DNA of 64,000 nt. Source: an uncultured Eubacterium sp. Its GTDB lineage: Bacteria; Bacillota; Clostridia; Lachnospirales; Lachnospiraceae. Made by a program: the position numbers and the translations under genes. Of the stretch, positions 7,280-64,000 are shown piece by piece. Within the stretch, counting starts at the first letter, position 1. Each line of letters starts with the position of its first letter. The notes beneath the pieces are model-generated. The model made no database searches, was not told where the DNA came from, and saw only the letters and a list, made by a program, of their open reading frames with translations. The stretch lies in contig CAPAOV010000003.1 in NCBI GenBank assembly GCA_948579355.1, forward strand, positions 72,693 through 136,692, given 5' to 3'.

Positions 7280-7286
7280 TTAGAGA

Positions 7287-7315: not shown

Positions 7316-7349
7316 CAAGTTATATAAATAATTTATATAACTTGATTAT
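7311..7349. promoter_or_regulatory. Perfect 19-1-19 palindrome, putative TetR operator overlapping the -10 box
   Basis: ATAATCAAGTTATATAAAT-a-ATTTATATAACTTGATTAT, checked base by base. Confidence 0.7.
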
Positions 7350-7362
7350 AAGGAGGTACATA

Positions 7363-42080: not shown

Positions 42081-42124
42081 CAAATCATCGCTGAACAAAA
42101 GCGTTCTCGAAATGGAGGATTTTT

Positions 42125-43144: not shown

Positions 43145-43168
43145 CCAGCAAAGGAAAGGATGTTGAAC

Positions 43169-44056: not shown

Positions 44057-44073
44057 AAAAATGGAGGATAATT

Positions 44074-44685
44074 ATGGGACAGATACAGGTAGAAAAAAAT
44101 GCCGGCGGCATTGAGGGATTGTGCGTGATTCAGCCTACTGTACATGGCGACGAGCGCGGCTATTTTATGGAGACTTATAATGAAAACGATATGAAAGAGG
44201 CCGGACTCAACCTTACTTTCGTACAGGACAATCAATCCAGTTCCTCAAAAGGAGTGCTTCGCGGCCTCCACTTTCAAAAAAACTATCCACAGGGGAAACT
44301 TGTCCGCGTAATACGCGGTTCCGTCTTCGACGTAGCCGTGGATATTCGTCAGGGCAGTAAAACATATGGAAAATGGTACGGTTTGGAACTGTCAGAAGAG
44401 AATAAGAAACAATTTTATGTTCCGAAAGGATTCGCGCACGGATATCTCGTGCTGAGCGAATGGGCAGAATTTTGTTATAAATGCACCGATTTCTATCATG
44501 CCGGCGACGACGGCGGCCTCACTTGGAACGACCCTGCCATCGGCATTGAATGGCCCGATGTCATCGGTGAATACTCCGGCAGCGGCTCCGCCGCCGGATA
44601 TCAGATGAGCGATGGAACACCCCTCAATATCAACGAACGGGATGAAAACTGGCCCGGATTGTCCGGGCAAAATACGTCTGAATAA
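44074..44685 (+). CDS. rfbC: dTDP-4-dehydrorhamnose 3,5-epimerase
   Basis: HGDERGYF.E...Q.N.S.S.KGVLRGLH.Q pattern. Confidence 0.93.
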   Translation: MGQIQVEKNAGGIEGLCVIQPTVHGDERGYFMETYNENDMKEAGLNLTFVQDNQSSSSKGVLRGLHFQKNYPQGKLVRVIRGSVFDVAVDIRQGSKTYGKWYGLELSEENKKQFYVPKGFAHGYLVLSEWAEFCYKCTDFYHAGDDGGLTWNDPAIGIEWPDVIGEYSGSGSAAGYQMSDGTPLNINERDENWPGLSGQNTSE

Positions 44686-46276: not shown

Positions 46277-46981
46277 CTATTTTGTTGTCTGCGCATTTTT
46301 TTGCAAATACCATTTTGCCAGTTGCAAATCAGGCCACTCGTCAATATCAACACTGTACTGTTTTTCCATGCGATAAGGAACAGGATTATCATTGAAACTT
46401 GTCTTCTCACTCAAGTCTGCAATGCGGTTAATATATATACTGCCGTCAACAAGAACATACTCTGGCATATCCTGTCGGCGAACAGTGCTTCCAAGAGGCA
46501 GCACATGCTCCATCTCTCCCCCATCCATCGTACGCATCAGAATCGGGTGTTCTTCTACCGGACGCACGGAAACTACCCCCCGCTCCCCACTCTCCACAAA
46601 CAGATTGAGGGCGGCGTCAATATCCTGCGCCCGCCTCAACGGCTGAGTGGGCTGCAGTAAAAGTAAAATATCATAGTTCTCTCCCCGCTCTTTCAGCCAG
46701 TTCACCGCATGCAGCACGGCGTCAATCGTCTTCGCCGTATCCGACGCCAGTTCCTGTGGACGCAAAAATGGTACATATGCCCCACAGTCAGCGCTCACTT
46801 TCTGTATTTGTTCGGAATCTGTCGTCACAACAATACGGTCAACATAGGCGCTCTCTTTTGCCGCATCAATCGAATACGCAATCAATGGTTTCCCACACAA
46901 ATCAATGATATTCTTTCCCTTAATTCCCTTACTTCCTCCCCTCGCCGGAATCAGGGCTAATACTCTTTTCCCCGATATCAT
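46277..46981 (-). CDS. Acylneuraminate (nonulosonate) cytidylyltransferase family
   Basis: ALIPARGGSKGIKGKNI..L.GKPLIAYSI motif. ATG at 46981 lies behind AAAGGAG. Confidence 0.85.
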   Translation of the reverse strand: MISGKRVLALIPARGGSKGIKGKNIIDLCGKPLIAYSIDAAKESAYVDRIVVTTDSEQIQKVSADCGAYVPFLRPQELASDTAKTIDAVLHAVNWLKERGENYDILLLLQPTQPLRRAQDIDAALNLFVESGERGVVSVRPVEEHPILMRTMDGGEMEHVLPLGSTVRRQDMPEYVLVDGSIYINRIADLSEKTSFNDNPVPYRMEKQYSVDIDEWPDLQLAKWYLQKNAQTTK

Positions 46982-47007
46982 TGCCAACCACTCCTTTCTG
47001 CCTCATC

Positions 47008-48048
47008 CTATCGTATCATATCATAAGTCAGTTGCACATCCGCATCAATATCCACGGCAGCCGTTTTCCCCAGAAGCGAATCATATTCCTCCGCCAGAAT
47101 ACTACCTGTTCCCGGACGTTTCACCCACAGATTGTCTTTCGTAAATGGCTCCCCCTTTTTCACCGGAGCTATCGTCACAACCGTGGCAAAAGCAAAATCA
47201 ATCGTCACCTGCTCTTCCGGCAAGGCCACTTTCTCACCGCCCCGCATCTTCGGTACTTCCTTTGCCGCCTGCATCAAATCGGAGCAAGCCGCCTCGTCCA
47301 TCGAGCAGACAATATCCGGCCCCATTCTCTCCATTCTGTCCGTAAAATGTCTCTCAACGATATCTGCTCCCATTGCCATGGCAGCAATACAGGCATTATT
47401 ATTTTGCGTGTGGTCGGACAATCCAACCGGAACACCGGAAAACTCTCTCATCAAATCCTGCATGGCGCCGAGCCGCACCCACTCCGGTTTCGTCGGATAA
47501 ATATTCGTCGTATGCATCAATGCATAAGACACGCCGCAGCGCTCCAAAATATTTACCGTCTTTGCTATCGCCGGAATGTCATTCATCCCCGTCGATACAA
47601 TCATCGGTTTTCCAAATTCCGCCACATGCTCAATGAGCGGATAATTATTGAGCTCTCCGGAGCCAATCTTATAGGCCTGAACTCCCATGCGCTCCAGACG
47701 GTCTGCCGCCGCCCGCGAAAACGGAGTACTTAAAAATACCATTCCCAGCTCTTCGGTATATTCTTTAAACTCCCGCTCCTCTTCCTCATTCAATGCGCAA
47801 CGCGCCATAATATCATAAATGGAATCCGTGGAGTTGCCCGGCACTACTTTTCTCGCCACCTGACACATCTCATCTTCTACTATATGCGTTTGGTGTTTAA
47901 TCAAACGCGCTCCCGCGCGCCGCGCCGCGTCTGCCATCTCTTTGGCGACGGCCAGACTCCCCTCATGATTAATGCCGATTTCCGGAATAACCAGCACCCG
48001 ATTGACATCACCAACTAAAATATCCCCAATCTTAAATTGTCTTTTCAT
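47008..48048 (-). CDS. N-acetylneuraminate-synthase family enzyme (NeuB/PseI/LegI/SpsE-like) with C-terminal SAF domain
   Basis: VIPEIGINHEGSL..AKEMADAA...GA..IKHQT, KIGSGEL.N, GLSDHT motifs. Confidence 0.88.
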   Translation of the reverse strand: MKRQFKIGDILVGDVNRVLVIPEIGINHEGSLAVAKEMADAARRAGARLIKHQTHIVEDEMCQVARKVVPGNSTDSIYDIMARCALNEEEEREFKEYTEELGMVFLSTPFSRAAADRLERMGVQAYKIGSGELNNYPLIEHVAEFGKPMIVSTGMNDIPAIAKTVNILERCGVSYALMHTTNIYPTKPEWVRLGAMQDLMREFSGVPVGLSDHTQNNNACIAAMAMGADIVERHFTDRMERMGPDIVCSMDEAACSDLMQAAKEVPKMRGGEKVALPEEQVTIDFAFATVVTIAPVKKGEPFTKDNLWVKRPGTGSILAEEYDSLLGKTAAVDIDADVQLTYDMIR

Positions 48049-48081: not shown

Positions 48082-49050
48082 CTAAACCATCGTTCCTTTC
48101 GGATACACATCGTTACAATCCCATCTCGGAAGAGCAAACCGGTTGTCTTCCCCTAATTTTGCGGCCCGCGCCTCTACGGAAACGCCCAGCGCACAACCCT
48201 TTGTTTTTATGTAATCTATCACTGCATCACTGTAATTGCCGTAAGGATAGTTCATTACCCACTCATTGGGATTGATTACATCTTTCATAAATGCAAGCGC
48301 TTTCTCTATATCCTGCTCCATCGCCGGGGCATCCAGCTTTCCAAGCCAATAATGGTCGTAGCCATGCAACCCGAAAAACATACCATCCTCCCGCATCTGC
48401 CGCATTTGTCCGGTATCCAGATAGAGCTCTCTGGCAAAGTCGCTCTCCTCCCGCCCCACGTATTTCTGAAATAATCTTTTTGCTATCTCTGTCCGTATAT
48501 CTTCCGGCAACGCATTCTGCAGTAGCCTCTTAACAAATATAACTTCTGCCGTATCCCAGCGATTCGCCACCGCCAACTCGCTATAAAGCGCCTCATTTGC
48601 CGGAATTTCCAATCCCTGCTTACGGCATTCATCCATTTCCCGAAAACAATCCTGAACCAGTTCTGGCATTGCCTGCCGTCCACGCATCTCGGCTTCTGCC
48701 AAAATGAAATGAATACGGTTTACCGTCAATAATTTATGTTCTTTTAAAGCCATTGCATTGGGAAAAAAAGCCCCCTGAATACCAAACTTTTTTAGAATCG
48801 GATAAACGACCTCGTAATGGTCGATATAACCGTCATCAAATGTCAGTAAAAAACCATTTTCCGCAACTGAAGAAAAATCCTGTTCCCGGTATGCCTGTAA
48901 AATATCCTCCATCCTAAGAGGATTAAAATGCTTTAATAAATATTCTATCTGCTCCTCAAACAAAGCCTTATCCAACCCTTTAATTGCCGGATAAGCGCTG
49001 TCTCTTAAATCACGTACATAATGATACATAATCATATGAATCGGTTTCAT
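48082..49050 (-). CDS. Polysaccharide deacetylase (NodB-type) family protein
   Basis: FLLTFDDGYIDHY...P.L.K.G..G.FF motif. Confidence 0.75.
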   Translation of the reverse strand: MKPIHMIMYHYVRDLRDSAYPAIKGLDKALFEEQIEYLLKHFNPLRMEDILQAYREQDFSSVAENGFLLTFDDGYIDHYEVVYPILKKFGIQGAFFPNAMALKEHKLLTVNRIHFILAEAEMRGRQAMPELVQDCFREMDECRKQGLEIPANEALYSELAVANRWDTAEVIFVKRLLQNALPEDIRTEIAKRLFQKYVGREESDFARELYLDTGQMRQMREDGMFFGLHGYDHYWLGKLDAPAMEQDIEKALAFMKDVINPNEWVMNYPYGNYSDAVIDYIKTKGCALGVSVEARAAKLGEDNRFALPRWDCNDVYPKGTMV

Positions 49051-49333
49051 TTTTTTGACACCCTGTAGCACCTGAAATGCCGCCTTTCCGTTTTTTTCCT
49101 GTCTTTCTTTATACTATCATACCGTAATTCATCTGTAAAGACCGGCACGGCTGTAATAATACTCTATAATGCGACCATGAAAGGCGAAGCTTAGGTTGTC
49201 GACACTCTCTGGAAACTCTTTGTGAAAGCGAAGAAAATATAAGAACGGATAACTTTCCGGCCAATTGAAAAATATCCTCTTTTTATGTATAATGAAAAGA
49301 AAACTCAAATTGAGAAACCTATCGGAGGAAAAT

Positions 49334-50885: not shown

Positions 50886-51584
50886 ATGCACTATATAAAA
50901 GACAACACAAAAATATACGTTTATTCGATGCCGATAATGGATTCGCGGATGTATGTTATAATAAATGACGAGAATGAAAAAGAGGCGCTAATTATTGACC
51001 CGCTTTTTTCGGATGAGGCAGTTCCTGTTCTTCACGCGCTTTCACATGCCACGGTACTGCTCACCCATTCCCACTATGACCACATTTCCGGTATGAGCTG
51101 GCTGCGTGAGCAGGTTGATTGTACACTCCTCTGCTCGCAATGCTGTGCAGAAAAAATTGTAAACCCATATAAAAATCTTGCTGCATTCTCCGCCGTATTA
51201 ATTATAGGAAAGACCGAGGAGGAGCAGGAACAGTGCATGCAGTTTTTTGAACTGGACTTTACCTGTGAAGCCGACAAAACGTTTGACAGGGAAATAAGCT
51301 TTCCTTTTGGCGGCTACGAAGTTGCGATTCGCTACACGCCGGGGCACTCCGAATGCAGTCAGTGCATCTGCCTTAATGCGTCAAAAAAAGGACTGACACC
51401 GAAAATTGTCTTTACCGGTGACAGTCTTGTAAATGGATATGATACGATAACACGCCTTCCGGGAGGAAGCAAAAAAGATTTTAATTCGATAACCAAGCCT
51501 TATCTGGATTCCCTTTCCGATGACACCCTAATCATGCCGGGGCATGGAGATTGGGCACTAAAAGGGGCACTTGCCTCCTCCTGA
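50886..51584 (+). CDS. MBL-fold metallo-hydrolase
   Basis: THSHYDHISG motif plus a later GHS/H motif. Confidence 0.8.
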   Translation: MHYIKDNTKIYVYSMPIMDSRMYVIINDENEKEALIIDPLFSDEAVPVLHALSHATVLLTHSHYDHISGMSWLREQVDCTLLCSQCCAEKIVNPYKNLAAFSAVLIIGKTEEEQEQCMQFFELDFTCEADKTFDREISFPFGGYEVAIRYTPGHSECSQCICLNASKKGLTPKIVFTGDSLVNGYDTITRLPGGSKKDFNSITKPYLDSLSDDTLIMPGHGDWALKGALASS

Positions 51585-52950: not shown

Positions 52951-55527
52951 CTATTGCAAATATTTGCTCAGCGTCTTCTTTATCGACTCCATGTCAATTG
53001 GCTTAGCAATATGTGCGTTCATTCCCGCTGCCAAAGCATCTTTTACGTCTTCTGCAAAAGCATTTGCCGTCATTGCAATAATTGGTATCGTCTTCGCATC
53101 TTCACGCTCCAATGCCCGAATCGCCTTTGTAGCCTCATATCCGTTCATAACCGGCATTTGAACATCCATTAAAATGGCATCAAACTCTCCCTTTTCAGCG
53201 CGGGAGAAACGTTCCAGCGCTAATTTACCATCTTCTGCGATTTCACAGGTTGCCCCTTCTCCTCTTAATACTTCTGACAAAATTTCTGAATTGATTTCAT
53301 TGTCCTCGGCTACAAGGAAATTTCGTCCGGCCAAACTGTAATCCTGTCCGTCATCTTCTACTGTTCCCTCTCCTGAAGAAGCAAAATGAAGTTCCCGAAC
53401 TTTCTCTTTCAGTGCAGATACAAAAAACGGTTTGGATAGAAATCCGTCAACGCCCGACTGTACTGCCTCTTCCTCTAATTCATTCCAATCATAAGATGTC
53501 AGAAGAAAAATAGGCGTATGCTCAGGCACAATATCCCGAATCTGTCTTGCCGTTTCAATGCCGTCCATTTCCGGCATTTTCCAATCCAACAAGATAAGAT
53601 GATATGGATTTTCTTTCTCACAGGCATTGCGTACCTGTTGGATGCCATCCTCACCACTCAATGACAAGTCCACGGAAACAGGTGTTTCTTCCATAAGCAT
53701 TTGAACATTGTTCAAAATATCCTGTTCATCGTCCACAACCAGCATTCGGGAAACACCATGGTCTTTCCAAAACTGCTCGTCTATCACCTCTTCCGGAATA
53801 CGCAGTTCCAAGTCCACCGTAAAACAGCTTCCCTTATCCACTTCGCTGGCGACCTCAATCGTTCCCCCCATCAGTTTGACAATATTTTTTGTTATCGCCA
53901 TACCTAATCCGGTACCCTGTACCTTGTTTGTCGTGCTATTCTCTGCTCTGGTAAAGACATCAAATATCACCTCAAGATATTCCGGAGTCATACCATAACC
54001 ATTATCTTCAACTTCGATTCGAATATGCTCATACTGACTGGAGCGCTGCTCCAATCCAATAATACGCAGCCATATATTTCCCCCCTCCGGAGTATATTTC
54101 ACTGCATTTGAGAGAAGATTAATTAAAATCTGATTAAGCCTTGTCTCATCACCTATCAGATATTCATGTTTTACACCGCTTACCGTAACTTCAAACGTCT
54201 GTCCTCTGGCGTCTGCTGCCGGACGTATAATGGCATCTACCGATGAAATCATGCTGCTCAGAGTAAATTCTCCAATTGTAAGTACAACTTTTCCACTCTC
54301 AATCTTCGACACATCCAAAATATCATTTATAAGACTGAGCAAATGCTGTCCTGACGCAGTAATTTTTTCCGTATACTCTTTCACTTTTGCAGGATTATCC
54401 GCTTCCTTGGCGAGAAGGGAAGTAAATCCCAATATCGCATTCATCGGAGTCCGAATGTCATGCGACATATTGGATAAAAACGTTGTTTTTGAATCATTGG
54501 CAATCTGTGCCGCCTGCAATGCCTCTGCTAATCGTTTATTATGTATCTCACGTTCCTTTTCTCTCTCTTTTCTGCTCTTGTCCTGCTGTCTGTGACTGAA
54601 AACAAACAGCCCACAGCAAAGGAAAAAGGTAAGCAGCATCACCGCAACAATGAAATATATATTGTTATTTACTGCCGTTCCTTCCCGTTGTATTGCTTCT
54701 ACCGGCACATATCCGATAAGATATGTAGTTCCACCATTGACTGACCACATATATATCAGAGACTCTTTCTCCTGAATATCATGATAAAACATGATGTTCT
54801 TTCCCCTTTTTATATGTTCGGAAACATTCTGCTTTATTTTTTCTTCCAATACTTTATTCGCATGATAAAAGTCTGACAGATTTATATGGCCTGCTGCCCT
54901 CTCTCCCATTCCTTTCGGCTTTAATACAAATCTCTCGCTCTTTGCATCCATAATATACAGAATGGCGCTATTATTATAGAACTTGTCAGGTAAGGCGCTC
55001 TCAAAGGAATCATAAACATACTCCACATAAAGAGTCGCAATTTCCTTATTTTGTTTTATAATCGGACATTTCATCGTATACGCCCATGTACCCATTGAAT
55101 TTATATAGGATTTGGACATTTTCATGCCCTCTACTATACTTGTGGAAGAAAAATCCAAATCCTTTGTTGAAAATGTTTGTCCTGTATTGGAAATTCCCTC
55201 CGTCTTTCCCGACGGTACAATAGATATTTTTACCATTGTACTATTTTTATCGTAAGAACGAATAAATTCTTCCGGCTCTTCCATAGTGGCTAACTCCTGT
55301 GCGAGCAGCCTCTGAAACTCTGCCTCCCGTTTTAACATTACCTCTATCGTTCCCCGAATTAAATCCAAATTTTCGCTTAGATTTTCAACAGCAGAAGCAG
55401 ACATCTGTGTTGATATTTTACCCGCAGCCACATACAGAGCCGCACCCATAATAGAAAAGAATAATATAACGGGAATAATCAAACTAATCCCCCGTTTTGC
55501 TCTATGTTTTTTTCCCTTTCCGTTCAT
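52951..55527 (-). CDS. Hybrid sensor histidine kinase with a periplasmic sensor domain and two receiver domains
   Basis: Two TM helices flank an about 250-aa extracellular region. H-box SHDIRTPMN, N/G boxes, and two REC domains (VVDDE..., VAEDN...). Confidence 0.88.
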   Translation of the reverse strand: MNGKGKKHRAKRGISLIIPVILFFSIMGAALYVAAGKISTQMSASAVENLSENLDLIRGTIEVMLKREAEFQRLLAQELATMEEPEEFIRSYDKNSTMVKISIVPSGKTEGISNTGQTFSTKDLDFSSTSIVEGMKMSKSYINSMGTWAYTMKCPIIKQNKEIATLYVEYVYDSFESALPDKFYNNSAILYIMDAKSERFVLKPKGMGERAAGHINLSDFYHANKVLEEKIKQNVSEHIKRGKNIMFYHDIQEKESLIYMWSVNGGTTYLIGYVPVEAIQREGTAVNNNIYFIVAVMLLTFFLCCGLFVFSHRQQDKSRKEREKEREIHNKRLAEALQAAQIANDSKTTFLSNMSHDIRTPMNAILGFTSLLAKEADNPAKVKEYTEKITASGQHLLSLINDILDVSKIESGKVVLTIGEFTLSSMISSVDAIIRPAADARGQTFEVTVSGVKHEYLIGDETRLNQILINLLSNAVKYTPEGGNIWLRIIGLEQRSSQYEHIRIEVEDNGYGMTPEYLEVIFDVFTRAENSTTNKVQGTGLGMAITKNIVKLMGGTIEVASEVDKGSCFTVDLELRIPEEVIDEQFWKDHGVSRMLVVDDEQDILNNVQMLMEETPVSVDLSLSGEDGIQQVRNACEKENPYHLILLDWKMPEMDGIETARQIRDIVPEHTPIFLLTSYDWNELEEEAVQSGVDGFLSKPFFVSALKEKVRELHFASSGEGTVEDDGQDYSLAGRNFLVAEDNEINSEILSEVLRGEGATCEIAEDGKLALERFSRAEKGEFDAILMDVQMPVMNGYEATKAIRALEREDAKTIPIIAMTANAFAEDVKDALAAGMNAHIAKPIDMESIKKTLSKYLQ

Positions 55528-55974: not shown

Positions 55975-56793
55975 TTAATCATGATCGCAGTGCTGATGCA
56001 GATATATACAATCAGTCAAACCGTCATGTCGATAACCAAATTTCTCATATAACCGGATTGCGTTCTGATTCGTGCTCTCTACCCATAAATAAAAAGATTG
56101 GCTCTCATTTCTGTGAATATCAATATAACTGTTGACAAGGGAAAACCCTATGTCTCTGCTTCTATATATGGGATTAACACAAAGCGCTCTCAAATATGAT
56201 TTGACACCATATTTTTCAAATATTAAAACACCTGCCAGTTTTTTATCCCGACATATTTTAATAACTTGATGAAAAAGAAGAGACTGCTTCAGCTCTTCTT
56301 TCGTAAGCAAATGGTCCGACAAGACATCAAAGGAACTATAAAGCAGTTCGTATATTTCTTCACAATCTGTTTCATCCGCAAATACAGCCTTTTCCGTTAA
56401 AGGGAATATTTTCTCTTTGTCAACAGAAAGCTGCAGACGAAAATATTTTTTATAAAAATTAAATCCCATATTTTTTACAACGTCATAGCGGCCATTTTCT
56501 CCCCTCGCAATAATATCTGTTATCAAAATATTGTAATTTAACATTTCTTCATATAAATCCTGATAAACATTCTTAGAGAGTCTTCTACTATCATTTAAAA
56601 AATAGTACATCTTGTACATTCCACGCATCTTGTGCACAAGTACTACGATATCCTTATGGGAAAATATGTCCATCTCCCCATCCATAATCTTCTTTTGGAC
56701 TTCATGATAAGATAAATAACAATTTGCCCGCAATGGCTTCCCAATTGCATTCCTTATAATTTTTTTATCGTCTTCTGACAAAAAATGGGTCAT
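55975..56793 (-). CDS. GNAT-family acyltransferase with an N-terminal extension (last gene of the acylation operon)
   Basis: The GNAT core is LRALCVNPIYRSRDIGFSLV...NQNAIRLYEKFGY. ATG at 56793 lies behind AAGGAAGG. Confidence 0.7.
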   Translation of the reverse strand: MTHFLSEDDKKIIRNAIGKPLRANCYLSYHEVQKKIMDGEMDIFSHKDIVVLVHKMRGMYKMYYFLNDSRRLSKNVYQDLYEEMLNYNILITDIIARGENGRYDVVKNMGFNFYKKYFRLQLSVDKEKIFPLTEKAVFADETDCEEIYELLYSSFDVLSDHLLTKEELKQSLLFHQVIKICRDKKLAGVLIFEKYGVKSYLRALCVNPIYRSRDIGFSLVNSYIDIHRNESQSFYLWVESTNQNAIRLYEKFGYRHDGLTDCIYLHQHCDHD

Positions 56794-56806
56794 TTCCATC
56801 CTTCCT

Positions 56807-58450
56807 TTACAAAAACTCCTTAATACTATCTGAAATATGTATAATTGTCGATGACACGGCAAGAAATTTTAATGATACTAGCTTTTCGACGGCCTGTGCA
56901 AGAAAAAATGGTCTTTCCATATCCGACGAATCTTCCAACGAAATCTTTCGTTCCAACCATTCCGGACTATCAAAAATTTTAGGGAACAAATCAAAACTCT
57001 CCGCTTTATACACGACAGCATTCACTCTATACTCTCCCTGTAGCAAAGCAGAAAGGGAGGACATAAAAGATTGTAAAGTTTCATCACTCTCTTCTTCCTC
57101 CGCAACAAGAACAATGGAACTATTTGTAGACAACGCCCCCTGCTCCGCTAAACATTGCGCCGATTCTGCGACTTTCTCCTCATCATAAATAGTCATATCA
57201 AAAATAACGGCATCATACTTTTTTGAAGAACTTTCCGCCACCGAATCTAACTTATCAACAAATAACTCACAATCTTTCCAAAAGAGCTGTGACTGCATCT
57301 CTTCGACAATTTCGTGAGAACCGTAAAAACCCAGATTACATCCACTAGAATCCAATTCACGGCCAATAAATTTATCAATAGCAGTCTTTGGCTCCATTAT
57401 GAGAACATTTCTCGTATAGATTTCTCCATAATGCAGCCTATGCTCATCAAAGTGCTCATCCGTCACAATGACAGGAAGAATGTTTTCCACCGGAACCTGA
57501 AAGTAAGAAATTCCCATAGACAGACCGACACCAAAACCACAACTGCAAATCTGAATATTTTCTTTCCCATCGTATTTATCCCGATTATGACAAAGCGTAA
57601 TCGGAATCGATGCACTAGATGTATTTCCATATTCTTCAAATGAGGTAATCACTTTATCTTCTGGTAATCCACACACATCTGTAACGGTGTCTAAAATCAA
57701 TTTTTGTGCCTGATGTAAAACATAAAAATCAACATTTTCCTCTATATTCAGGTCACGTACAAAGGCACTCATGTTTGTGGCGACATCATTAAGTGCAAAT
57801 TCAAATACTTTATTTCCCTGCATCATCATTTCTGTCTTTCTATAGCGTACAATTGCATCCCATCCCGAACCATCACTAAAATTCCGAAACGAAAATTCGT
57901 TTTCCGGCTGCTTCTCTAAAGCCGTTGCTGCGCCTCCGGAGCCAAACATCATAATATTAATAATATCTTCTCTTTTCATTGTCACACTATCCGGCAGAAT
58001 CGCAATGTCACCTGTCAACAACAGAGCCTTTGTTCCATCCGGCTGACTTTGTAACAAACCGCCTATCGTCTGTATTCCCAAATCAAAAGCAGAACAGCCG
58101 AGATTGATATCATATGCCATACAATCTTTTCCCATTCCGAGACGTTCCGCCAAATCAATTGCCGTAGATGGAATCTCGTAATCGGCAAACTGCGTACACA
58201 AAATAAGCACTTTCACTTCTTCCCGGTTCCACTGTAAGTGCTCCAACAGTTTTTCCGCGGCACTGACACAAAGGTCCGAAAGTTTCTGATAACGATATGA
58301 TAAATGATGGCGGTATATTCCGGTTAATTTCGCCTGTTTCATCACCTGACGCTTGCCAAACACATCAATATAATCCATGTTATCCATAACATAAGAAGGG
58401 ACTGCTGAGGCAATGCCAGATACCTTTATATTAGAATACTTTCCATTCAT
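56807..58450 (-). CDS. KAS-III (FabH)-like enzyme fused to an about 220-aa C-terminal domain of unknown function
   Basis: The Cys-His-Asn triad context is retained (NLGCSAF, VLHQAQ, YGNTSSASIP). The C-terminal third has no motif I recognise. Confidence 0.8.
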   Translation of the reverse strand: MNGKYSNIKVSGIASAVPSYVMDNMDYIDVFGKRQVMKQAKLTGIYRHHLSYRYQKLSDLCVSAAEKLLEHLQWNREEVKVLILCTQFADYEIPSTAIDLAERLGMGKDCMAYDINLGCSAFDLGIQTIGGLLQSQPDGTKALLLTGDIAILPDSVTMKREDIINIMMFGSGGAATALEKQPENEFSFRNFSDGSGWDAIVRYRKTEMMMQGNKVFEFALNDVATNMSAFVRDLNIEENVDFYVLHQAQKLILDTVTDVCGLPEDKVITSFEEYGNTSSASIPITLCHNRDKYDGKENIQICSCGFGVGLSMGISYFQVPVENILPVIVTDEHFDEHRLHYGEIYTRNVLIMEPKTAIDKFIGRELDSSGCNLGFYGSHEIVEEMQSQLFWKDCELFVDKLDSVAESSSKKYDAVIFDMTIYDEEKVAESAQCLAEQGALSTNSSIVLVAEEEESDETLQSFMSSLSALLQGEYRVNAVVYKAESFDLFPKIFDSPEWLERKISLEDSSDMERPFFLAQAVEKLVSLKFLAVSSTIIHISDSIKEFL

Positions 58451-58472
58451 AGAACACACTCTCTTCCTAGTA

Positions 58473-58694
58473 TTAATCCGGTATATAATTGCATATATCG
58501 CCTATGGTTACAAATTCTTTAATCGTATCTGTCGTAAGATTCATATCATAGTCCTGTTTCATTCTCACAGTCAACGTCAAAGTACTAAGAGAATCCCATT
58601 CTTCCACTTCTTCCAAAATGGTATCCTCTGTCAGGCTTCCCTCATCTACATCCATAATCTCCTCAATAAATTCGATTTTTTCCTGTAACGTCAT
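58473..58694 (-). CDS. Acyl carrier protein
   Basis: 73 aa, acidic, phosphopantetheine-site context EEWDSLSTLTL. Confidence 0.8.
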   Translation of the reverse strand: MTLQEKIEFIEEIMDVDEGSLTEDTILEEVEEWDSLSTLTLTVRMKQDYDMNLTTDTIKEFVTIGDICNYIPD

Positions 58695-58736
58695 TTTTTC
58701 ATCCTCTCCTTAATCAAAATACTGCGTTATCTATTA

Positions 58737-59462
58737 TTATCCGTGATATCCTGCGCTTATACCAATGCATTCCCCTGTTATATACTTCGCTTCATCGGAT
58801 AATAGAAACTGAACTACATTCACTACATTATCAATAGGAATAATTCCCAATGGCTGCTTTTGTTTTACTACCGCAATCTCTTCCTCGCTCCACTCATTCT
58901 TATCATCACTCATTTTCGACATCACATTAGCGGGCATCACCGTATTAATACGAATCTTCCGTTTCAAAAATTCTTTCGCTAAAATCTGTACCTGAACATT
59001 CATCGCTTCTTTCGTCATCGCATAAGCAGACATCCCCATCTCTTTCATTACAGCCGCATAAGAAGAAATTCCTACAACAGCCGCTCCTTTATTGGAAGCT
59101 TTCACATTTATGAAATTGCGGCACATTTCATAAAAACCAAAAACGTTGACCCGAAACATATATTCCAAGTCATCCCGCTCCATAAGTTTCAATGTTTTTA
59201 TAAACACCACTCCTGCGCAATAAACAAGACCATCCAGACGTATACCCTCTTCTTTTAACGTCTGAAAAACAGGCTCAATTTCTTCTAATTTCCCCAAGTC
59301 GCATGGTATTACCATACTCTTTCCCTCTATTTCCTTTTGTACTTCCAACAGTTTATCCCGTCTGCGCGCTACAAGGATAACCGTTGTATCTGCATTGGAA
59401 AGTTTTTTTGCCATCTCTCTGCCTATGCCGGAAGATGCTCCTGTAATCATATAATATTTCAC
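58737..59462 (-). CDS. Short-chain dehydrogenase/reductase (FabG-like ketoreductase candidate)
   Basis: TGASSGIGREMAKKL, NVFG, SSYAA...YAMTKEA (YxxxK). GTG at 59462 lies 6 nt after AGGAGG. Confidence 0.8.
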   Translation of the reverse strand: MKYYMITGASSGIGREMAKKLSNADTTVILVARRRDKLLEVQKEIEGKSMVIPCDLGKLEEIEPVFQTLKEEGIRLDGLVYCAGVVFIKTLKLMERDDLEYMFRVNVFGFYEMCRNFINVKASNKGAAVVGISSYAAVMKEMGMSAYAMTKEAMNVQVQILAKEFLKRKIRINTVMPANVMSKMSDDKNEWSEEEIAVVKQKQPLGIIPIDNVVNVVQFLLSDEAKYITGECIGISAGYHG

Positions 59463-59684
59463 TGTATTCCTCCTATCTTTTATTCCTATACACTTCTCAT
59501 GATGGACGGTCTTGATCGCCGTCGCCACGGAATAATTTCATCCCCTGTATAAGAAAGGCTATCATATCCAAAGAAACATTTTTTTACTCAAACAGATGAA
59601 AATAATTTGTCAACAGCCTCCTCTTTGTCTTCCGCAAAACTGAAATGAACTGCATTATCTCCTGAATTTTTATTTTTCCCTCCA

Positions 59685-60749
59685 TCAATAAACCGATGTA
59701 ATCATTTCACAAAAATCCATGTTCCCCAGTTCCACAATCATAGAAGACCAAGACAAGCCGGCGCCAAATCCGGCAAGGCAGCACTGGTATCGATTCGTTG
59801 TCATCTCTTTAGCCAGATTATCGGTAATGGCAACCGGTATCGTTGAGCCGCTGGAATTACCAAATCTCTCCACTACATTCATAGGAACTTTATTCCATGG
59901 CACCTCCATTTTATCTGCGAGTTTCTGTAACATAAATTTGTTTGGCTGATGAAACAAAAACCAGTCAATATCTTCTTTTGTCATATTCGCATAGCTTACA
60001 ATCTCGTCAATCATAGGCGGTACTTCTTTTTGGACAAAGTTAAATACTTTAGAGCCATCCATCCACAAATCATCATAACTTTTCATTGTTCCATCACCGA
60101 TATCTCTCGGAATAGATGTCTCTGGCGTTCTCGGCATACGGAAACCGCCTGCATGCATAATCAATGTTTCCCTCTCTCTTCCGTCATTATATAAATTCAT
60201 ATATATATCTGCCGCCTTATCATCATGCTCAAATACGGTAATCGCCGTCGCATCCCCGCCAAAAGAAGCTGCTGTAAGCGGCTCCTCTTTATTCTTTCTG
60301 CACAGTACATCACCATTAAAAACAACAACTTTCTTGTCACCTATGACATCCAGAAGCAAAAAGGCCTGAAGCGCTCCTAACATAAACCCGACGCAGCCTT
60401 GTGGAATGTCCATACATATCACATCGGTAGGAAGGTCACACTCACCATGAATAATATTGCTCACATGAGGAATAAAATAATCAGGCGTCAGCCCCGTAAC
60501 TACAATGGCACCGATTTCTTCTCTCTTTATATATCCTTTCTCCAGCATATAGTTTAATCCGTAGATACAAAAATCAGATGTCGTTGAGTCTGCCTTGGCC
60601 GCTCGTCTTTTTCCAAAACCCATAATCCGCTTTAATCTCCTTGTCTGAAGCGTAGCAAAAGGTTTTGTCTCCTCATCATAATCATACTCATTTTCCGGCA
60701 TTACTGTCAGCATCCCTGCTATCCTCTTCCCTTTCAATGTAGTAATCAT
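59685..60749 (-). CDS. KAS-III (FabH)-like condensing enzyme / acyltransferase
   Basis: QGCVGF, FHQPNKF, FGNSSGSTIP triad contexts. 354 aa. Confidence 0.8.
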   Translation of the reverse strand: MITTLKGKRIAGMLTVMPENEYDYDEETKPFATLQTRRLKRIMGFGKRRAAKADSTTSDFCIYGLNYMLEKGYIKREEIGAIVVTGLTPDYFIPHVSNIIHGECDLPTDVICMDIPQGCVGFMLGALQAFLLLDVIGDKKVVVFNGDVLCRKNKEEPLTAASFGGDATAITVFEHDDKAADIYMNLYNDGRERETLIMHAGGFRMPRTPETSIPRDIGDGTMKSYDDLWMDGSKVFNFVQKEVPPMIDEIVSYANMTKEDIDWFLFHQPNKFMLQKLADKMEVPWNKVPMNVVERFGNSSGSTIPVAITDNLAKEMTTNRYQCCLAGFGAGLSWSSMIVELGNMDFCEMITSVY

Positions 60750-60976
60750 ACATTCCCTCCATTTTTTTTCACAACATTCGCAATTGTATCTAATGACTTG
60801 AAATTCTCCGGTATGATATCCAAACCATCAATTGAAATATCAAATGTATCATCCAGTTCAGATACTAACGATACAAGGTCAAAAGAATCTAAGTACCCAT
60901 CTTCAATAAAATCCTCACTGGAAGTAAAATCAAATTCAGGGCGGATTCCCTGCAAAATCTCCATTATTTTTTCCAT
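60746..60976 (-). CDS. DltC-like (aminoacyl/acyl) carrier protein
   Basis: 76 aa. GYLDSFDLVSLVSELDDTF resembles the DltC Ser-site helix. ATGA overlap with the downstream gene. Confidence 0.75.
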   Translation of the reverse strand: MEKIMEILQGIRPEFDFTSSEDFIEDGYLDSFDLVSLVSELDDTFDISIDGLDIIPENFKSLDTIANVVKKNGGNV

Positions 60977-60996
60977 TGTCTTTCCTCCTTTCTTTC

Positions 60997-62517
60997 TTAT
61001 ATTGACTGTGAAAGTTTCAGACGGTCAATTTTGCCATTCGTATTTCTTGGCAGCTCATCCATCGCATGGTAAACCGTAGGAACCATATAGCGCGGGAAAG
61101 AAGTCCCCAAAGCTTTACGAATCTCCAACTCCGTCACTCCACTTTCTTCGTAAAACAATACAATACACTTATTTTTATTATCATAAACAACACAACAGTT
61201 TGAAACCAATTTAAGATTGTTTACTATCTCATGTTCTATCTCACCAAGCTCAATCCGATATCCCTGATGTTTCACTAAGCTGTCTTTACGGCCTTTGAAA
61301 TAGATAAGACCATCCTCTCCATATGCCGCAATATCCCCTGTCCGATAAATCAATTCAGGATAAGATTGATTCAAAGGATTTTGGACAAACACAGTTTCCG
61401 TCTTTTGCAGGTTATTATAATATCCCATCGCAAGGGAAGTACCACGCACACAAATTTCTCCTTCCTCACCCCTGTCACACAGCTTGTCTTCCTCCGTGAG
61501 AAGCAAAATATCGGTGTTATTACATGGAATACCGATTGGCAGCGGCTCATCATCGGCAAATGTTTTATCTACAATGTAATAAATACAGTCAAGCGTTATC
61601 TCAATCGGCCCATACAGATTGGCAAAGACTGCCTGCGGCAAATGTTTCTGCCAGTAATTAAATTGTTTTGTTGGGAAAACTTCACCGGCAAACCATACAG
61701 TTTTGATATCCGGCAACGGTATCTTTACAAGCAAATCCATATTGGCAATATTAACCATAATTGTCGGTACCCAGAACAAAAAGTTTACTTTCTTTTCCTG
61801 CAATTCAGCTAATAATTTTGCCGGAAAAACAGCCAGCGAGCTGTCCAAAAGAACAATCGTCGCCCCTTTCATCATCATCAGGCATATCTCAAAATCATAA
61901 ATATCAAATACAATCGGAGAAAGGGCTCCTATTATTTCATCGCCGCACAAATCAAAAGTTTCTGTCGCCCATGCCATAAAATCAAAAAAGCTGCGGTAAT
62001 TTAATACAACTCCTTTAGGCGTTCCGGTGGAACCGGATGTATTAATAATGCAAAACGGGTCGGTGTCAATTAATTTCGCACGGTTTTCCTGCAGTATGGC
62101 GTCATCAACAGACATCGCGCCGTACTCCAGTTTATCCATCTCTACCACTTTCATCTGATATTTTCCCCAATCAATCAGCGCAGAGTATTTCGTGCTGGTA
62201 ATTACCGTAGACGGTTTCAATTGCTTGAGTATATTTTCCAAACGCTGGATAGGCGTCTTTATATCCAAGTTATTAAACACATGGGAGCTATATAAAATTC
62301 CAATATCGGCAACTACCGAATCAATTGATTTTGGCAACAATACAACGATAGGGGAAAATTGGGATTGTGGCAGCATTTCAGATAATTTAGTCCCAAGTTT
62401 CCTTCCCCGCATCATTAAGGTCTCAAACGTACAGGTTTCATTATTATGTATCAATGCCGTCTTCTCTTTGTTTTCCGCCACTGTTTCTTCAAAATAATCT
62501 AACACTGTTTTATACAC
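60997..62517 (-). CDS. Stand-alone adenylation enzyme, DltA-like (AMP-binding superfamily)
   Basis: NTSGSTGTPKGV, YGPIE, YRTGD, GRKDSLVKHQGYRIELGEIE, NGKIDR cores. 506 aa, like DltA. GTG lies behind AGGAGG. Confidence 0.85.
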   Translation of the reverse strand: MYKTVLDYFEETVAENKEKTALIHNNETCTFETLMMRGRKLGTKLSEMLPQSQFSPIVVLLPKSIDSVVADIGILYSSHVFNNLDIKTPIQRLENILKQLKPSTVITSTKYSALIDWGKYQMKVVEMDKLEYGAMSVDDAILQENRAKLIDTDPFCIINTSGSTGTPKGVVLNYRSFFDFMAWATETFDLCGDEIIGALSPIVFDIYDFEICLMMMKGATIVLLDSSLAVFPAKLLAELQEKKVNFLFWVPTIMVNIANMDLLVKIPLPDIKTVWFAGEVFPTKQFNYWQKHLPQAVFANLYGPIEITLDCIYYIVDKTFADDEPLPIGIPCNNTDILLLTEEDKLCDRGEEGEICVRGTSLAMGYYNNLQKTETVFVQNPLNQSYPELIYRTGDIAAYGEDGLIYFKGRKDSLVKHQGYRIELGEIEHEIVNNLKLVSNCCVVYDNKNKCIVLFYEESGVTELEIRKALGTSFPRYMVPTVYHAMDELPRNTNGKIDRLKLSQSI

Positions 62518-62527
62518 TGTATACCTC

Positions 62528-63388
62528 CTATTGAACCGTGGTTACATTGCCATATGAGTATTCTTTTACGAGTGGTTTCGTATCATATGGTTCTGCCAAA
62601 AAGCAATTTACATCTCTTGTCAGCCATTCAACCGCTTTCTCATATGCTGCTTTTTCAGTAAAACTTGAAACGTTGGCATCTCCTACCTTTTTCTTTAAAA
62701 ACAATCCCTGTTCCATGAGCTCTTGTTCAAATGTCGGCGGAACACAAGGTAACACATCCCTATACTTTACATACAACGTATGTTTATCTTCCCGAATATT
62801 CCCATCGGCGTCAATAATATGTCCGGTAAATTCCTTATCATAACGATAGGGAACCCGCAATTTTTCTTCTACATAGTGCATCTGTGTATGACATTGATAT
62901 AATTCTGCTCCAAAAAAGAGTATTCTCGCATTTGGAGTCTGGTGCAAACGGTCAAAAAAACTCCCCTCCCCCAACGACTTATCGCCGCTTACTTCTGCCA
63001 GCTCTTTATGTTTTCCAATCACACAAACTGACATCAGAGGGTCTTCGGAGCGTACCGCATCTTCTCTCTTTCTCGCATACTCATTTAACATGCCCATCTT
63101 ACATTTTGTGTTTTTCACATCATAGTCTTCTCTATTCCCATAACTAAAAGTAAAAGTTGGAAATACAAGCGTACAGACTTCCAACTCACAAAGGGAATCA
63201 AACAATATCTCAACCAACTCTTTTCTCTTAATTTCTCTGTTAAGCAAACCAAAAGACAAATCAGTGTGAACGAGAAGAACCTCACAATCATCCGCTTTTA
63301 CATCACGCATCGCCTGAACTAACTGACCATATGTAACCCATGACTTATCTCTCGCCTGAAATAGTTTTAATTCGCTATCTCTTCTCAT
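62528..63388 (-). CDS. AAC(3)-fold (Antibiotic_NAT family) N-acyltransferase
   Basis: LLVHTDLSFGL, TLVFPTFTF, GMLNEYARKREDAVRSEDPLMSV, ILFFGAEL..CHTQMHYVE layout, as in aminoglycoside 3-N-acetyltransferases. Confidence 0.7.
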   Translation of the reverse strand: MRRDSELKLFQARDKSWVTYGQLVQAMRDVKADDCEVLLVHTDLSFGLLNREIKRKELVEILFDSLCELEVCTLVFPTFTFSYGNREDYDVKNTKCKMGMLNEYARKREDAVRSEDPLMSVCVIGKHKELAEVSGDKSLGEGSFFDRLHQTPNARILFFGAELYQCHTQMHYVEEKLRVPYRYDKEFTGHIIDADGNIREDKHTLYVKYRDVLPCVPPTFEQELMEQGLFLKKKVGDANVSSFTEKAAYEKAVEWLTRDVNCFLAEPYDTKPLVKEYSYGNVTTVQ

Positions 63389-64000
63389 TATAGCCGTCCT
63401 CCATCTACATAGAATTTTCTTCCCGTAATAAATTTTGCAGTATCGCTTATTAAATATGCCGCCATATTGGCAACATCTTCCGGCTCTCCCAGTGGCATCA
63501 TCTGTCTTCCCGTGATATTACTCTCCTCACCGGAAACCTCCCCAAAAGAATATGCCATCGGTGTGGCAATCGGCCCCGGCACAATGGCATTCACCCGAAT
63601 ATTTTTATCAAACAATTCAACCGCCAGAGAAGAAACTGCCATCTCCAATGCTCCTTTTGTCGCTGCGTATACGCTCATGCATTTTTGTGGATAGTGCGCA
63701 TTAATCGCAGATAATGCAACAATACTTCCACCTGCTGAATTTGTTTTTTTACTGTAGTACTTTACGAGTTCCATGAAAGAAACAAAATTCACATCAAACA
63801 TTTCCTGAATATTTGCGGCTGAAACTACTTTGATAGGAATCACTTTTGCAATGCCAGCACAATGCACCAGACCGGAAAGCTTTTCTCCTGTCTCACGTAT
63901 CTCCTTAAATGCGTTAGCATAAGAAGCAAATTCCCTAAGTTCCAGTGGAATAACAATATGTCCATCCCCTGTAAGCTTCTGCTTTGTTTCATCCAGACGG
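63388..64000 (-). CDS. SDR-family oxidoreductase, 5' end beyond the window
   Basis: The frame is open to the window edge (...LSGLVHCAGIAKV). YAATKGAL (YxxxK), NAIVPGPIATPM. TAATG overlap with the downstream gene. Confidence 0.8.
   Translation of the reverse strand, partial: RLDETKQKLTGDGHIVIPLELREFASYANAFKEIRETGEKLSGLVHCAGIAKVIPIKVVSAANIQEMFDVNFVSFMELVKYYSKKTNSAGGSIVALSAINAHYPQKCMSVYAATKGALEMAVSSLAVELFDKNIRVNAIVPGPIATPMAYSFGEVSGEESNITGRQMMPLGEPEDVANMAAYLISDTAKFITGRKFYVDGGRL

Follow-up and report, generated by a model that had tools for sequence, protein, structure and literature searches.

A gene cluster of carrier proteins and stand-alone acyl-handling enzymes in a Lachnospiraceae genome, with a probable place in nonulosonic-acid glycosylation

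The DNA analysed here, called the window throughout, is a stretch of 64,000 nucleotides (nt) from an uncultured Eubacterium sp. of the Lachnospiraceae (GCA_948579355.1, contig CAPAOV010000003.1, positions 72,693 to 136,692), and its last part, from 55975 to 64000, carries a minus-strand gene cluster built around two carrier proteins (CP), which we propose to be a module for the acyl decoration of amino sugars. Around the carriers are enzymes related to ketoacyl-acyl carrier protein synthase III (KAS-III), short-chain dehydrogenases/reductases (SDR), an amino-acid adenylation enzyme, an acyltransferase with the aminoglycoside 3-N-acetyltransferase or AAC(3) fold, and a GNAT-domain protein. The window ends inside the cluster, and the public contig L001 (Logan ERR3199609), which matches it with 0 mismatches over 11,473 nt, adds 3.2 kb past that end; other loci used for comparison carry labels of the same kind. 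The features of the cluster, with sizes in amino acids (aa) and residues counted within each open reading frame (ORF), are the following.

55975-56793, minus strand: two-domain protein of 272 aa with a C-terminal GNAT domain (Acetyltransf_1, E 1.4e-12, residues 169-277 of the 295-aa ORF)
56807-58450, minus strand: KAS547, a KAS-III of 547 aa (Pfam ACP_syn_III and ACP_syn_III_C, residues 1-320) with a degenerate SDR-like C-terminal domain
58473-58694, minus strand: acyl carrier protein (ACP) of 73 aa, serine in WDSLS (Pfam PP-binding, E 3.9e-7)
58737-59462, minus strand: SDR of 241 aa, also 241 aa in L001, a FabG-like ketoreductase with TGASSGIG and YAMTK (Pfam adh_short_C2, E 1.7e-43)
59463-59684, minus strand: deletion scar of 222 nt, read from its frame-2 translation against the proteins of L002
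59685-60749, minus strand: KAS354, a KAS-III-like enzyme of type 2, 354 aa, with C119/H267/N298 (Pfam ACP_syn_III_C; best PDB match 4efi, E 9e-47)
60746-60976, minus strand: CP76, a DltC-like carrier protein of 76 aa, serine in LDSFD (Pfam PP-binding, E 3.7e-4; weak DltC and AmcB matches)
60997-62517, minus strand: stand-alone amino-acid adenylation enzyme of 506 aa (Pfam AMP-binding, E 3e-52)
62528-63388, minus strand: AAC(3)-fold acyltransferase of 286 aa (Pfam Antibiotic_NAT, 122 bits against a cut-off of 25)
63388-64000, minus strand: SDR of 247 aa in full, cut by the window edge (Pfam adh_short_C2, E 1.5e-45)

All nine minus-strand ORFs that an initial annotation had described, from the letters of the window alone, are present where it placed them, and Pfam agrees with each of its domain assignments. 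The two gene overlaps that it reported could be read directly, one as ATGA at 60749-60746, where the stop of the DltC-like carrier gene overlaps the start of KAS354, and the other as TAATG at 63390-63386; its gap of about 220 nt measures 222 nt. What it had overlooked are the deletion scar that fills this gap and the SDR-like extension of the long KAS-III. The claim that the catalytic signatures are intact stands for the KAS-III triads, the carrier serines, motifs A3, A8 and A10 of the adenylase and the 241-aa SDR, and holds only in part for the SDR at the edge, of which the window contains residues ~45-247 with the YAATK segment, while the first 44 aa, including TGASSGIG, lie beyond 64000 (the gene is complete at 3101-3844 of L001). 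The greater AT-richness of the cluster is likewise real but modest, its GC content being 0.391 against 0.44 in the 9-54 kb interval, and the first part of the window, 1-9 kb, is lower still (0.33). The GNAT gene, the last of the cluster, has an ORF that extends to 56862, the called start giving 56793, and it is by BLAST a paralogue of genes for proteins termed unk262 and unk270 in relatives. There are 0 membrane-like segments in all of the cluster proteins, and none of these proteins reaches a curated NCBIfam cut-off, so that the cluster holds no equivalog of FabH, FabG, AcpP, DltA, DltC or AAC(3).

Both KAS-III proteins of the window align their Cys-His-Asn triad in register with C112/H244/N274 of Escherichia coli FabH, at C119/H246/N276 in KAS547 and C119/H267/N298 in KAS354; in the FabH sequence used for the alignment the triad falls at the expected positions. 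The arginines R36, R151 and R249, with which FabH binds CoA and ACP, are replaced by non-basic residues in all KAS paralogues of the module. Scores against the FabH models fall well short, with 166.1 bits (cut-off 249) and 125.7 (292.1) for KAS547, and 156.2 (436) and 153.5 (249) for KAS354. The type-2 family to which KAS354 belongs counts 885 proteins at E<=1e-30, all with generic names only, in Campylobacter, Aliarcobacter, Paenibacillus, Tissierella, Maribacter, Muriicola and Odoribacter; with the Campylobacter concisus protein as query, the named relatives are those of C. pinnipediorum, another Campylobacter sp. and Aliarcobacter, and not of C. jejuni. The DltC-like carrier gene stays adjacent to the KAS354-type gene in Campylobacter, Arcobacter, Paenibacillus, Maribacter and a genome of the Haliangiales, and both carrier proteins of the window retain the serine of the DSx motif. 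The long KAS-III carries a C-terminal extension of ~210 aa, whose degenerate SDR-like domain lies at 56807-57460. In homologues with 37-40% identity this extension gives adh_short matches, and the alignment indicates that the window copy and its close relatives have lost the glycine motif and the YxxxK segment; the extension is probably a structural remnant of an ancestral fusion between a KAS-III and a ketoreductase.

To judge from its motifs (A3 as SGSTGTPKG, A8, and A10 as NGKIDR) and from its binding pocket, the adenylase is a true amino-acid adenylation domain. It scores 291.7 against TIGR01733 (cut-off 317.4), and 260.9 and 240.6 against the two DltA models (cut-offs 476 and 559.85), and its best PDB matches are LgrA, GrsA and DltA. 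The pocket was anchored on a fragment of GrsA-PheA that reproduces the canonical code DAWTIAAICK. Specificity, which the initial annotation had left to pocket prediction, could be read as far as the code DIFFWALLDK, with the equivalents of Asp235 and Lys517 and the same code in orthologues; this code points to an alpha-amino acid in a crowded pocket and could be matched with confidence to no known specificity. The three aromatic residues of the pocket suggest that the substrate is small. Other loci give DIQYMGVVNK, DISFIGTVVK, DIQFMGLVNK, DNLFLALVDK and DHYFWALVDK, in all of which the aspartate that binds the alpha-amino group is kept, a variation compatible with diversified amino-acid use. 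The adenylase probably loads the carrier protein encoded by the next gene.

The AAC(3)-fold protein is the most conserved marker of the module. It has no match to any PDB chain by phmmer, and a profile search gives weak matches to YokD, AAC(3)-IIb (7lao) and FrbF. Its AlphaFold model (pLDDT 86.8) has as top Foldseek matches AAC(3)-IVa, FrbF and YokD, with E ~1e-14, TM 0.65-0.72 and 16-21% identity. H171 and E174 are invariant in 12 homologues, and H171 aligns with the histidine of the FHLAEY segment of YokD; AAC(3) enzymes carry a catalytic His-x-x-Glu pair at this position, and the spacing of E174 fits. The resemblance to AAC(3), FrbF and YokD lies in the fold and in this conserved pair, whereas the window protein differs in forming a separate subfamily that is found in the context of carrier proteins and not of resistance cassettes, and that scores far below the AAC_3 cut-off of NCBIfam (46.8 bits against 270). 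The subfamily comprises about 200 clusters at 50% identity (E<=1e-30), and hundreds of relatives occur in metagenomes, the few that are named being Lachnospiraceae or Eubacterium. Distant members are fused to MaoC, to HAD, to a sugar-type methyltransferase, or to aminopeptidase-like DUF4910/DUF2172/M28 domains together with a 4'-phosphopantetheinyl transferase (PPTase). For instance, the 812-aa protein P0354 (L029 4654-7092) joins the AAC(3) fold to DUF4910/DUF2172 and a PPTase, and is followed downstream by FkbH-like, ACP, MaoC and Wzx genes; this fusion and these neighbours connect the fold with acyl donors bound to phosphopantetheine and with glycan loci. Since the amine that FrbF acetylates is CMP-linked, a CMP-nonulosonate is a plausible acceptor, and the window protein is a candidate N-acyltransferase onto a sugar amine.

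Related loci were collected by a genome scan that yielded 22 of them, their gene maps being drawn by BLAST and the relatives being labelled Lachnospiraceae, Eubacterium or Roseburia. They share a core in conserved order: ACP, type-1 KAS-III, SDR, SDR, AAC(3)-fold enzyme, adenylase, DltC-like carrier and type-2 KAS-III. The core is found in many Lachnospiraceae and in Paenibacillus and is retained, at 38-42% identity, in genomes of C. concisus, Arcobacter and the Haliangiales (a myxobacterium), and the aminoacyl trio of adenylase, carrier and KAS-III occurs in Maribacter. Extra cassettes are shuffled around the core and consist of a 330-aa protein of no known family, the 262- and 270-aa GNAT paralogues, additional carriers and SDRs, and the long KAS-III; Pfam and PDB searches with the accessory 330-aa and 262/270-aa proteins of relatives were empty, and the latter are related to GNAT by BLAST only.

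The neighbours of the core indicate the kind of pathway that it serves. In C. concisus it adjoins genes for a PseH-like GNAT, PseF (342 bits, cut-off 205.7), PseI (489, cut-off 340), a PseD-type Maf protein and flagellin, and in Arcobacter its neighbours are PseG-like, NeuB-like and cytidylyltransferase genes. A 457-460-aa GNAT-matching protein is encoded in Arcobacter and in a second C. concisus locus (L024), the Arcobacter copy showing by eye an N-terminus of the metallo-beta-lactamase (MBL) type. A Pfam census of 106 non-cluster ORFs at 14 Lachnospiraceae loci is headed by Flagellin_C (6) and Flagellin_N (5), followed by NeuB, Epimerase_2 (a hydrolysing 2-epimerase) and CTP_transf_3 with 4 each; SAF domains, PS_pyruv_trans and Lactamase_B are also frequent, and lower counts were obtained for Maf (MptE-like), polysaccharide deacetylase and formyltransferase (3 each) and for DegT, FliD, FliS and FabD-like genes (2 each). 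Five genes of the window itself belong to families of this neighbourhood.

44688-46253, minus strand: putative Maf-type (MptE-like) flagellin nonulosonate transferase (MptE-like, E 4.7e-34; weak match to a PseD domain)
46277-46987, minus strand: CMP-nonulosonate synthetase (Pfam CTP_transf_3; PseF model 159, cut-off 205.7)
47008-48048, minus strand: nonulosonic acid synthase of the NeuB family (NeuB, E 3e-66; NeuB_NnaB 373, cut-off 399.65; PseI 209)
48082-49071, minus strand: polysaccharide-deacetylase-family protein of 329 aa (Pfam Polysacc_deac_1), a candidate de-N-acetylase that would free a sugar amine
50886-51584, plus strand: MBL-fold hydrolase of 232 aa (Pfam Lactamase_B; weak GloB and SolJ matches)

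The first four of these genes sit 7-11 kb from the cluster of the window, and their homologues stand directly beside the cluster in L008, L009, L011, L012, L017 and L022: a 43%-identical Maf homologue in L022, CMP-synthetases in L009, L011, L012 and L017, synthases in L009 and L012 (the window enzyme being nearer the NeuB/Leg type than PseI), and deacetylases with 61% identity in L008, L011 and L022. Homologues of the MBL-fold hydrolase lie beside the cluster in L015, L017, L018 and L021. In Paenibacillus (L030) the core, a GNAT, an MBL-fold hydrolase and, at its end, a homologue of the window deacetylase form one compact operon, and this content ties the MBL gene and the deacetylase of the window to the system; the hydrolase is probably an associated component of the thioesterase type. 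The link between the cluster and the nonulosonate genes at 44.7-49 kb, which had been drawn by the initial annotation as pure inference, is backed by the neighbourhoods of about 20 other genomes.

Several other features of these surroundings may be recorded. Directly beside the Maf gene, on the opposite strand, lies a complete rmlA/B/D/C-like set of the dTDP-rhamnose pathway (41184-44685), whose rmlA- and rmlB-like members have homologues close to the L018 cluster. Just downstream of the cluster, 52951-55527 encodes a hybrid histidine kinase that has two receiver domains, and a 52%-identical homologue near the L013 cluster may reflect regulation or plain synteny. Recurrent accessories of the related islands (L014/L015 13784-15811; L008 14249-17226; L013 15041-17269) are a thiamine pyrophosphate-dependent enzyme, which recalls the likewise thiamine pyrophosphate-dependent SO_3262 (sfmB) from the flagellin-modification operon of Shewanella, and FrhB-like, DUF6270 and polysaccharide pyruvyl transferase proteins. 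At the far end of the window, positions 1-9000 form a second low-GC stretch (0.29-0.35) with a Fic-domain protein (2520-3680) and three ORFs of 383, 304 and 196 aa that have no Pfam match (4678-5829, 5857-6771 and 7342-7932), and 13883-17017 encodes a likely surface protein of 1044 aa with leucine-rich repeats of the BspA type.

A further element is present in relatives of the window's strain. A Phage_integrase gene (326 aa) occurs in L002-L004, L006, L016, L019, L020, L027 and L028, and wherever the left flank is available it sits between the right operon, homologous to that of the window, and a divergent, paralogous left operon with its own adenylase, carrier protein, KAS-III and SDR genes (the L006 contig ends at the integrase, so its left operon is unseen). 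The integrase gene is carried on an invertible segment of 1087 nt (L002 6715-7855), which is bounded by 27-nt inverted repeats with the core CCTTAAG-N7-CTTAAGG. L002 and L003 are collinear outside the repeats, at 99% and 97% identity, and inside them agree, at 96%, only as reverse complements; the closer pair L027/L028 likewise shows the two orientations, which come from different samples. The segment looks like a toggle between two decoration programmes, of a kind typical of surface-antigen variation. A different layout is seen in L020 (4167-6618), in which the repeats are 2.4 kb apart and enclose the integrase and the gene for a 330-aa cluster protein, so that inversion would also move a structural gene.

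The copy in the window's strain has been rearranged. Upstream of the cut SDR, L001 encodes an ACP (72 aa), a third KAS-III and a 100-aa C-terminal SDR fragment, and then, at the contig end, a DDE transposase (DDE_Tnp_1) of an insertion sequence (IS) element, L001 1-1790 holding the fragment and the transposase. In this strain the unit counts 12 genes and includes three sets of KAS-III, ACP and SDR, one set of adenylase, carrier and KAS-III, a single AAC(3)-fold enzyme and a single GNAT. This composition replaces the nine genes in two arms proposed earlier with three KAS-III/ACP/SDR sets and one aminoacyl arm; close relatives have a unit of at least 16 genes and the second, divergent paralogous operon. 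In frame 2 the scar at 59463-59684 reads KIQEIMQFISVLRKTKRRLLTNYF...KNVSLDMI..GMKLFRGDGDQDRPS, ending in a stop, which by comparison with L002 is the N-terminus of unk262 (a GNAT-like protein of 262 aa) joined to the C-terminus of unk329 (329 aa). At this position L027 has unk262, CP73, KAS358 and unk329, and the contig of L028 stops after CP73 (both are relatives whose DNA is 90.5% identical to that of this strain); on this comparison the 222-nt gap was left by the deletion of four genes. Upstream, homology to the intact relatives begins within the right inverted repeat, and what is left in the window's strain is one half-site, the SDR fragment and the IS element, the invertible segment being gone, so that the switch present in relatives appears to have been lost through rearrangement at the recombination site. 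Judged by its relatives, the window's copy is a remodelled derivative, which has undergone an internal deletion, lacks the upstream switch and has an IS element close by, and the module may or may not be expressed in this strain. Promoter scans performed no better than shuffles, and neither they nor terminator scans are used here as evidence.

Putting sequence, fold and gene neighbourhood together, we regard it as probable that the cluster serves as an accessory module for acyl decoration in a nonulosonic-acid glycosylation island of the legionaminic or pseudaminic type, whose glycan is most likely placed on flagellin. The safest general statement is that it decorates amino sugars in glycan loci; in Lachnospiraceae and Campylobacterota the acceptor with the best support is flagellin nonulosonate. 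According to this proposal, dedicated carrier proteins, primed by a housekeeping PPTase, would hold the building blocks. Each set of KAS-III, ACP and SDR would make a short 3-hydroxyacyl-S-ACP by Claisen condensation and ketoreduction, the hydroxyl groups being kept because neither a dehydratase nor an enoyl reductase is present. The stand-alone adenylase would load an alpha-amino acid, probably a small one given the bulky residues that line its pocket, onto the DltC-like carrier, and the translationally coupled KAS354 would act on the aminoacyl group, either transferring it or using it as the starter for a condensation. An amine on the sugar or nucleotide-sugar would be exposed by the polysaccharide-deacetylase-family enzyme, and the AAC(3)-fold enzyme and the GNAT may then move carrier-bound acyl groups to the N5 and N7 amines, with the phosphopantetheine arm taking the place of CoA, while the MBL-fold hydrolase may edit or release thioesters. 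The decorated sugar would be activated with CMP and placed on flagellin by the Maf protein.

A bolder version of this proposal, offered tentatively as a possibility that may well prove wrong, is that the AAC(3)-fold subfamily consists of unrecognised carrier-protein-dependent N-acyltransferases which, together with shuffled KAS-III/ACP/SDR and adenylase/CP cassettes, re-acylate de-N-acetylated nonulosonates and so write a variable 'acyl code' on flagellin glycans, a code that a self-encoded tyrosine recombinase would toggle in many gut Lachnospiraceae by flipping the segment between the two divergent paralogous operons. On this version one of the dominant antigens of gut commensals would be edited chemically in a phase-variable manner.

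A number of observations weigh against assigning the module to flagellin nonulosonates, or to this biochemistry. No flagellin gene lies within the 64-kb window, where the nonulosonate genes are set apart from the cluster by unrelated genes for a hybrid histidine kinase, a solute-binding protein and an AraC regulator; no NeuB is encoded within 10 kb of the Paenibacillus operon; and the Maribacter aminoacyl trio is part of a polysaccharide locus and not of a flagellar one. The cluster has no FabD or PPTase gene, its KAS-III proteins are without the FabH arginines for binding CoA or ACP, and a Cys-His-Asn triad cannot separate a condensing enzyme from an acyltransferase. The copy in this strain, minus four genes and the upstream switch, may be inactive, and no member of the module has a known product, transcript or enzyme activity. 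Together, the Paenibacillus and Maribacter arrangements mean that the acceptor may be any sugar of the 2,4-diamino-trideoxyhexose type. An alternative that we consider unlikely is that the same biochemistry serves another acceptor and role, the amino sugar of a capsule, an S-layer or a cell-wall polysaccharide. The Maribacter adenylase-CP-KAS-III trio lies among genes for initiating transferases (Bac_transf), GT1, a PglD-like acetyltransferase and FemAB-like proteins, a Wzx flippase stands beside the AAC(3)-fold fusion in L029, the window has rmlACBD beside Maf and lacks a flagellin gene, and genes for polysaccharide pyruvyl transferases and for glycosyltransferases are met repeatedly near the cluster. 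In Lachnospiraceae, however, the neighbours found most often are flagellin, FliD and FliS, an adjacent Maf-family gene is present in L008, L022, C. concisus and the window, and neither flippase, polymerase nor initiating transferase is seen among the top 25 families beside the Lachnospiraceae clusters.

The proposed decoration of flagellin nonulosonates has also to be set against two readings in which this cluster decorates no glycan at present, or never did. That the cassettes yield, as a diffusible product, an acylated amino acid or a short polyhydroxy-acyl amide, as a small-molecule hybrid of stand-alone, type-II-like adenylase, carrier and KAS-III, seems to us very improbable. It would account for the stand-alone adenylase, carrier, KAS-III and ketoreductase-like enzymes found with acyltransferases and without a glycosyltransferase in the cluster, for a GC content under that of the flanks with mobile elements close by, and for a Paenibacillus operon away from sugar-synthesis genes; yet that operon includes a sugar deacetylase, the co-location with nonulosonate and flagellin genes recurs in three phyla, the amines on which AAC(3)-fold enzymes act are amino-sugar-like or, for FrbF, CMP-linked, and the cluster has no condensation domain, thioesterase domain, transporter or regulator. 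Rather doubtful too, if less so, is the idea that the cluster of this strain is a decaying, non-functional remnant, whatever its ancestral role, which has lost a four-gene cassette, its recombinase switch and probably its native promoter. The scar that joins two gene ends, the homology that starts only inside the right inverted repeat behind an SDR fragment and a DDE transposase, and the degenerate SDR-like domain of KAS547 would all be expected of such a remnant, but that domain is degenerate in many close homologues as well, cassette content varies widely among apparently functional loci, so that the loss of one cassette may only alter the product, and all 11 of the full-length genes have intact ORFs, keep the catalytic residues and are tightly coupled.

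Nonulosonic acid chemistry is very diverse, and its N-acyl groups include alanyl and glutamyl as well as 3-hydroxybutanoyl and di-O-methylglyceroyl. Lachnospiraceae flagellins are major immune targets in the gut, and anti-flagellin antibodies mark Crohn's disease. A variable and possibly phase-switched acyl decoration could affect recognition by antibodies, innate receptors and phages, and if the proposal holds it describes a poorly studied way to vary a major bacterial surface antigen. The genes that install non-acetyl groups are largely uncharacterised (PMC3068675), and the module offers a concrete, widespread and testable enzyme set for the non-acetyl N-acylation step, in which the AAC(3) fold, and a large KAS-III subfamily that has no name, would take on a new role. 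By the same token, annotations as 'AAC(3) family N-acetyltransferase' in gut commensals probably do not denote resistance genes.

Among established pathways, several candidates can be set aside. A dlt operon is rejected by the DltA scores (260.9/476 and 240.6/559.85) and by the lack of DltB, DltD and membrane-like segments. Type II fatty acid synthesis is rejected by the unmet FabH cut-offs, the absent arginines and the lack of fabD, fabG, fabF, fabZ and fabI in the window cluster and L001 (FabD-like genes lie near just 2/14 related loci). For a non-ribosomal peptide or polyketide synthase (NRPS/PKS) the adenylation motifs and pocket are as expected, but condensation and thioesterase domains and multidomain modules are found neither in the window, nor in the 3.2 kb beyond it, nor in the fuller loci of relatives; the megasynthase that might have lain just past the window edge, and turned these genes into its accessories, is not encoded on that part of L001. 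An AAC(3) resistance enzyme has the fold, whereas the window protein falls below the AAC_3 cut-off and has no phmmer match to a PDB AAC(3). Domains, scores and L001 all support the earlier view of a carrier-centred set of stand-alone enzymes that is neither dlt, nor fatty acid synthesis, nor NRPS/PKS.

Partial likenesses are more informative. With DltA/DltC, which serve D-alanylation, and with AlmE/AlmF/AlmG, which attach glycine to lipid A, the module shares a stand-alone adenylase, a small amino acid, a carrier of ~76 aa and a cell-surface polymer as target, and it differs from both in its cytoplasmic KAS-III partner, in having no DltB/DltD or membrane acyltransferase, and in DltA scores far under the cut-offs; the residue equivalent to 278, a cysteine in DltA, is phenylalanine in the window adenylase. 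Among natural-product pathways, the KAS-III-like acyltransferases and adenylase-CP-KAS-III starter sets such as CerJ, ChlB6 and PtmS/PtmI/PtmK of pactamycin, and BtrH of butirosin, an ACP-dependent N-acyltransferase onto an aminoglycoside, resemble it in that FabH-like enzymes handle acyl or aminoacyl groups on carriers, or that such groups are moved to sugar hydroxyls or amines, and in the order adenylase-CP-KAS-III, whereas none of them is a close sequence match and the context in the window is a glycosylation island and not an antibiotic cluster.

Nearer in context are the flagellin glycosylation genes of Campylobacter and Aeromonas. The locus of C. jejuni NCTC 11168 presumably includes fabH2, acpP3, Cj1307 and an 'amino acid activating enzyme'. 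What could be confirmed is that its Cj1308 and acpP2 are annotated as acyl carrier proteins (PMC6338021). Orthology of the window genes to C. jejuni genes was not established, the named KAS354-type relatives excluding that species, and Cj1298, considered as a possible AAC(3)-like protein, was ruled out, as it is LegH. The aminopeptidase-like Cj1295 has been proposed to strip the N5 acetyl group before a non-acetyl N5 acyl group is added to pseudaminic acid, 5-N-(di-O-methylglyceroyl)-pseudaminic acid being Cj1295-dependent (PMC3068675), and relatives of the AAC(3)-fold enzyme similarly carry aminopeptidase-like DUF4910/DUF2172 and PPTase fusions. De-N-acetylation and re-acylation on CMP-nonulosonates have been observed (bioRxiv 10.64898/2026.04.20.719630), and 7-N-(3-hydroxybutanoyl)-pseudaminic acid is a natural sugar (PMC6333632). 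In group II polar-flagellin islands of Aeromonas, genes for an ACP, a 3-oxoacyl-ACP reductase, an AMP-dependent synthetase, LuxE and LuxC lie between pse genes, and the flagellin glycan has been proposed to bear a lipid or acyl modification (PMC7874193). These islands, also biochemically uncharacterised, are alike in placing carrier and acyl-activating genes among pseudaminic acid genes and maf, and unlike in their LuxC/LuxE-type enzymes and in having no KAS-III, AAC(3)-fold enzyme or amino-acid adenylase.

The core of AAC(3)-fold enzyme, adenylase, carrier and KAS-III, the cassette architecture and the switch were not found described in the literature, including the 2026 papers on flagellar glycosylation in Clostridium and C. 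jejuni. Nevertheless, the earlier statement that the gene set fits no textbook pathway and is undescribed was too strong, given the ACP, reductase and AMP-ligase genes of Aeromonas (PMC7874193) and, above all, the vioS/vioR/acp set of Pseudomonas syringae, which is the closest characterised precedent (PMC3927599). In P. syringae pv. tabaci, the viosamine on flagellin owes its N-(3-hydroxy-1-oxobutyl) group to vioS (a KAS-III), vioR (a 3-oxoacyl-ACP reductase), acp and vioB, and the sugar is missing when vioR is mutated (PMC3927599). This island differs from the module in its acceptor, dTDP-viosamine, which is a 4-amino-4,6-dideoxy sugar and not a nonulosonate, in its single arm and its hexapeptide-type VioB, and in having no adenylase/DltC-like arm, AAC(3)-fold enzyme, second KAS-III type, MBL-fold hydrolase, deacetylase or multiplicity of cassettes. 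The likeness, which is one of gene content, extends to orfB/C/D of P. aeruginosa PAK and lies in a dedicated KAS-III, ACP and FabG-like SDR, which in Pseudomonas stand within a flagellin glycosylation island: adjacent genes of these three kinds occur as three sets in the window's strain, and, while the window itself has only Maf, NeuB, CMP-synthetase and deacetylase genes at 7-11 kb and no flagellin gene, the neighbours of the clusters in its relatives include flagellin, FliD, FliS, Maf, PseI and PseF.

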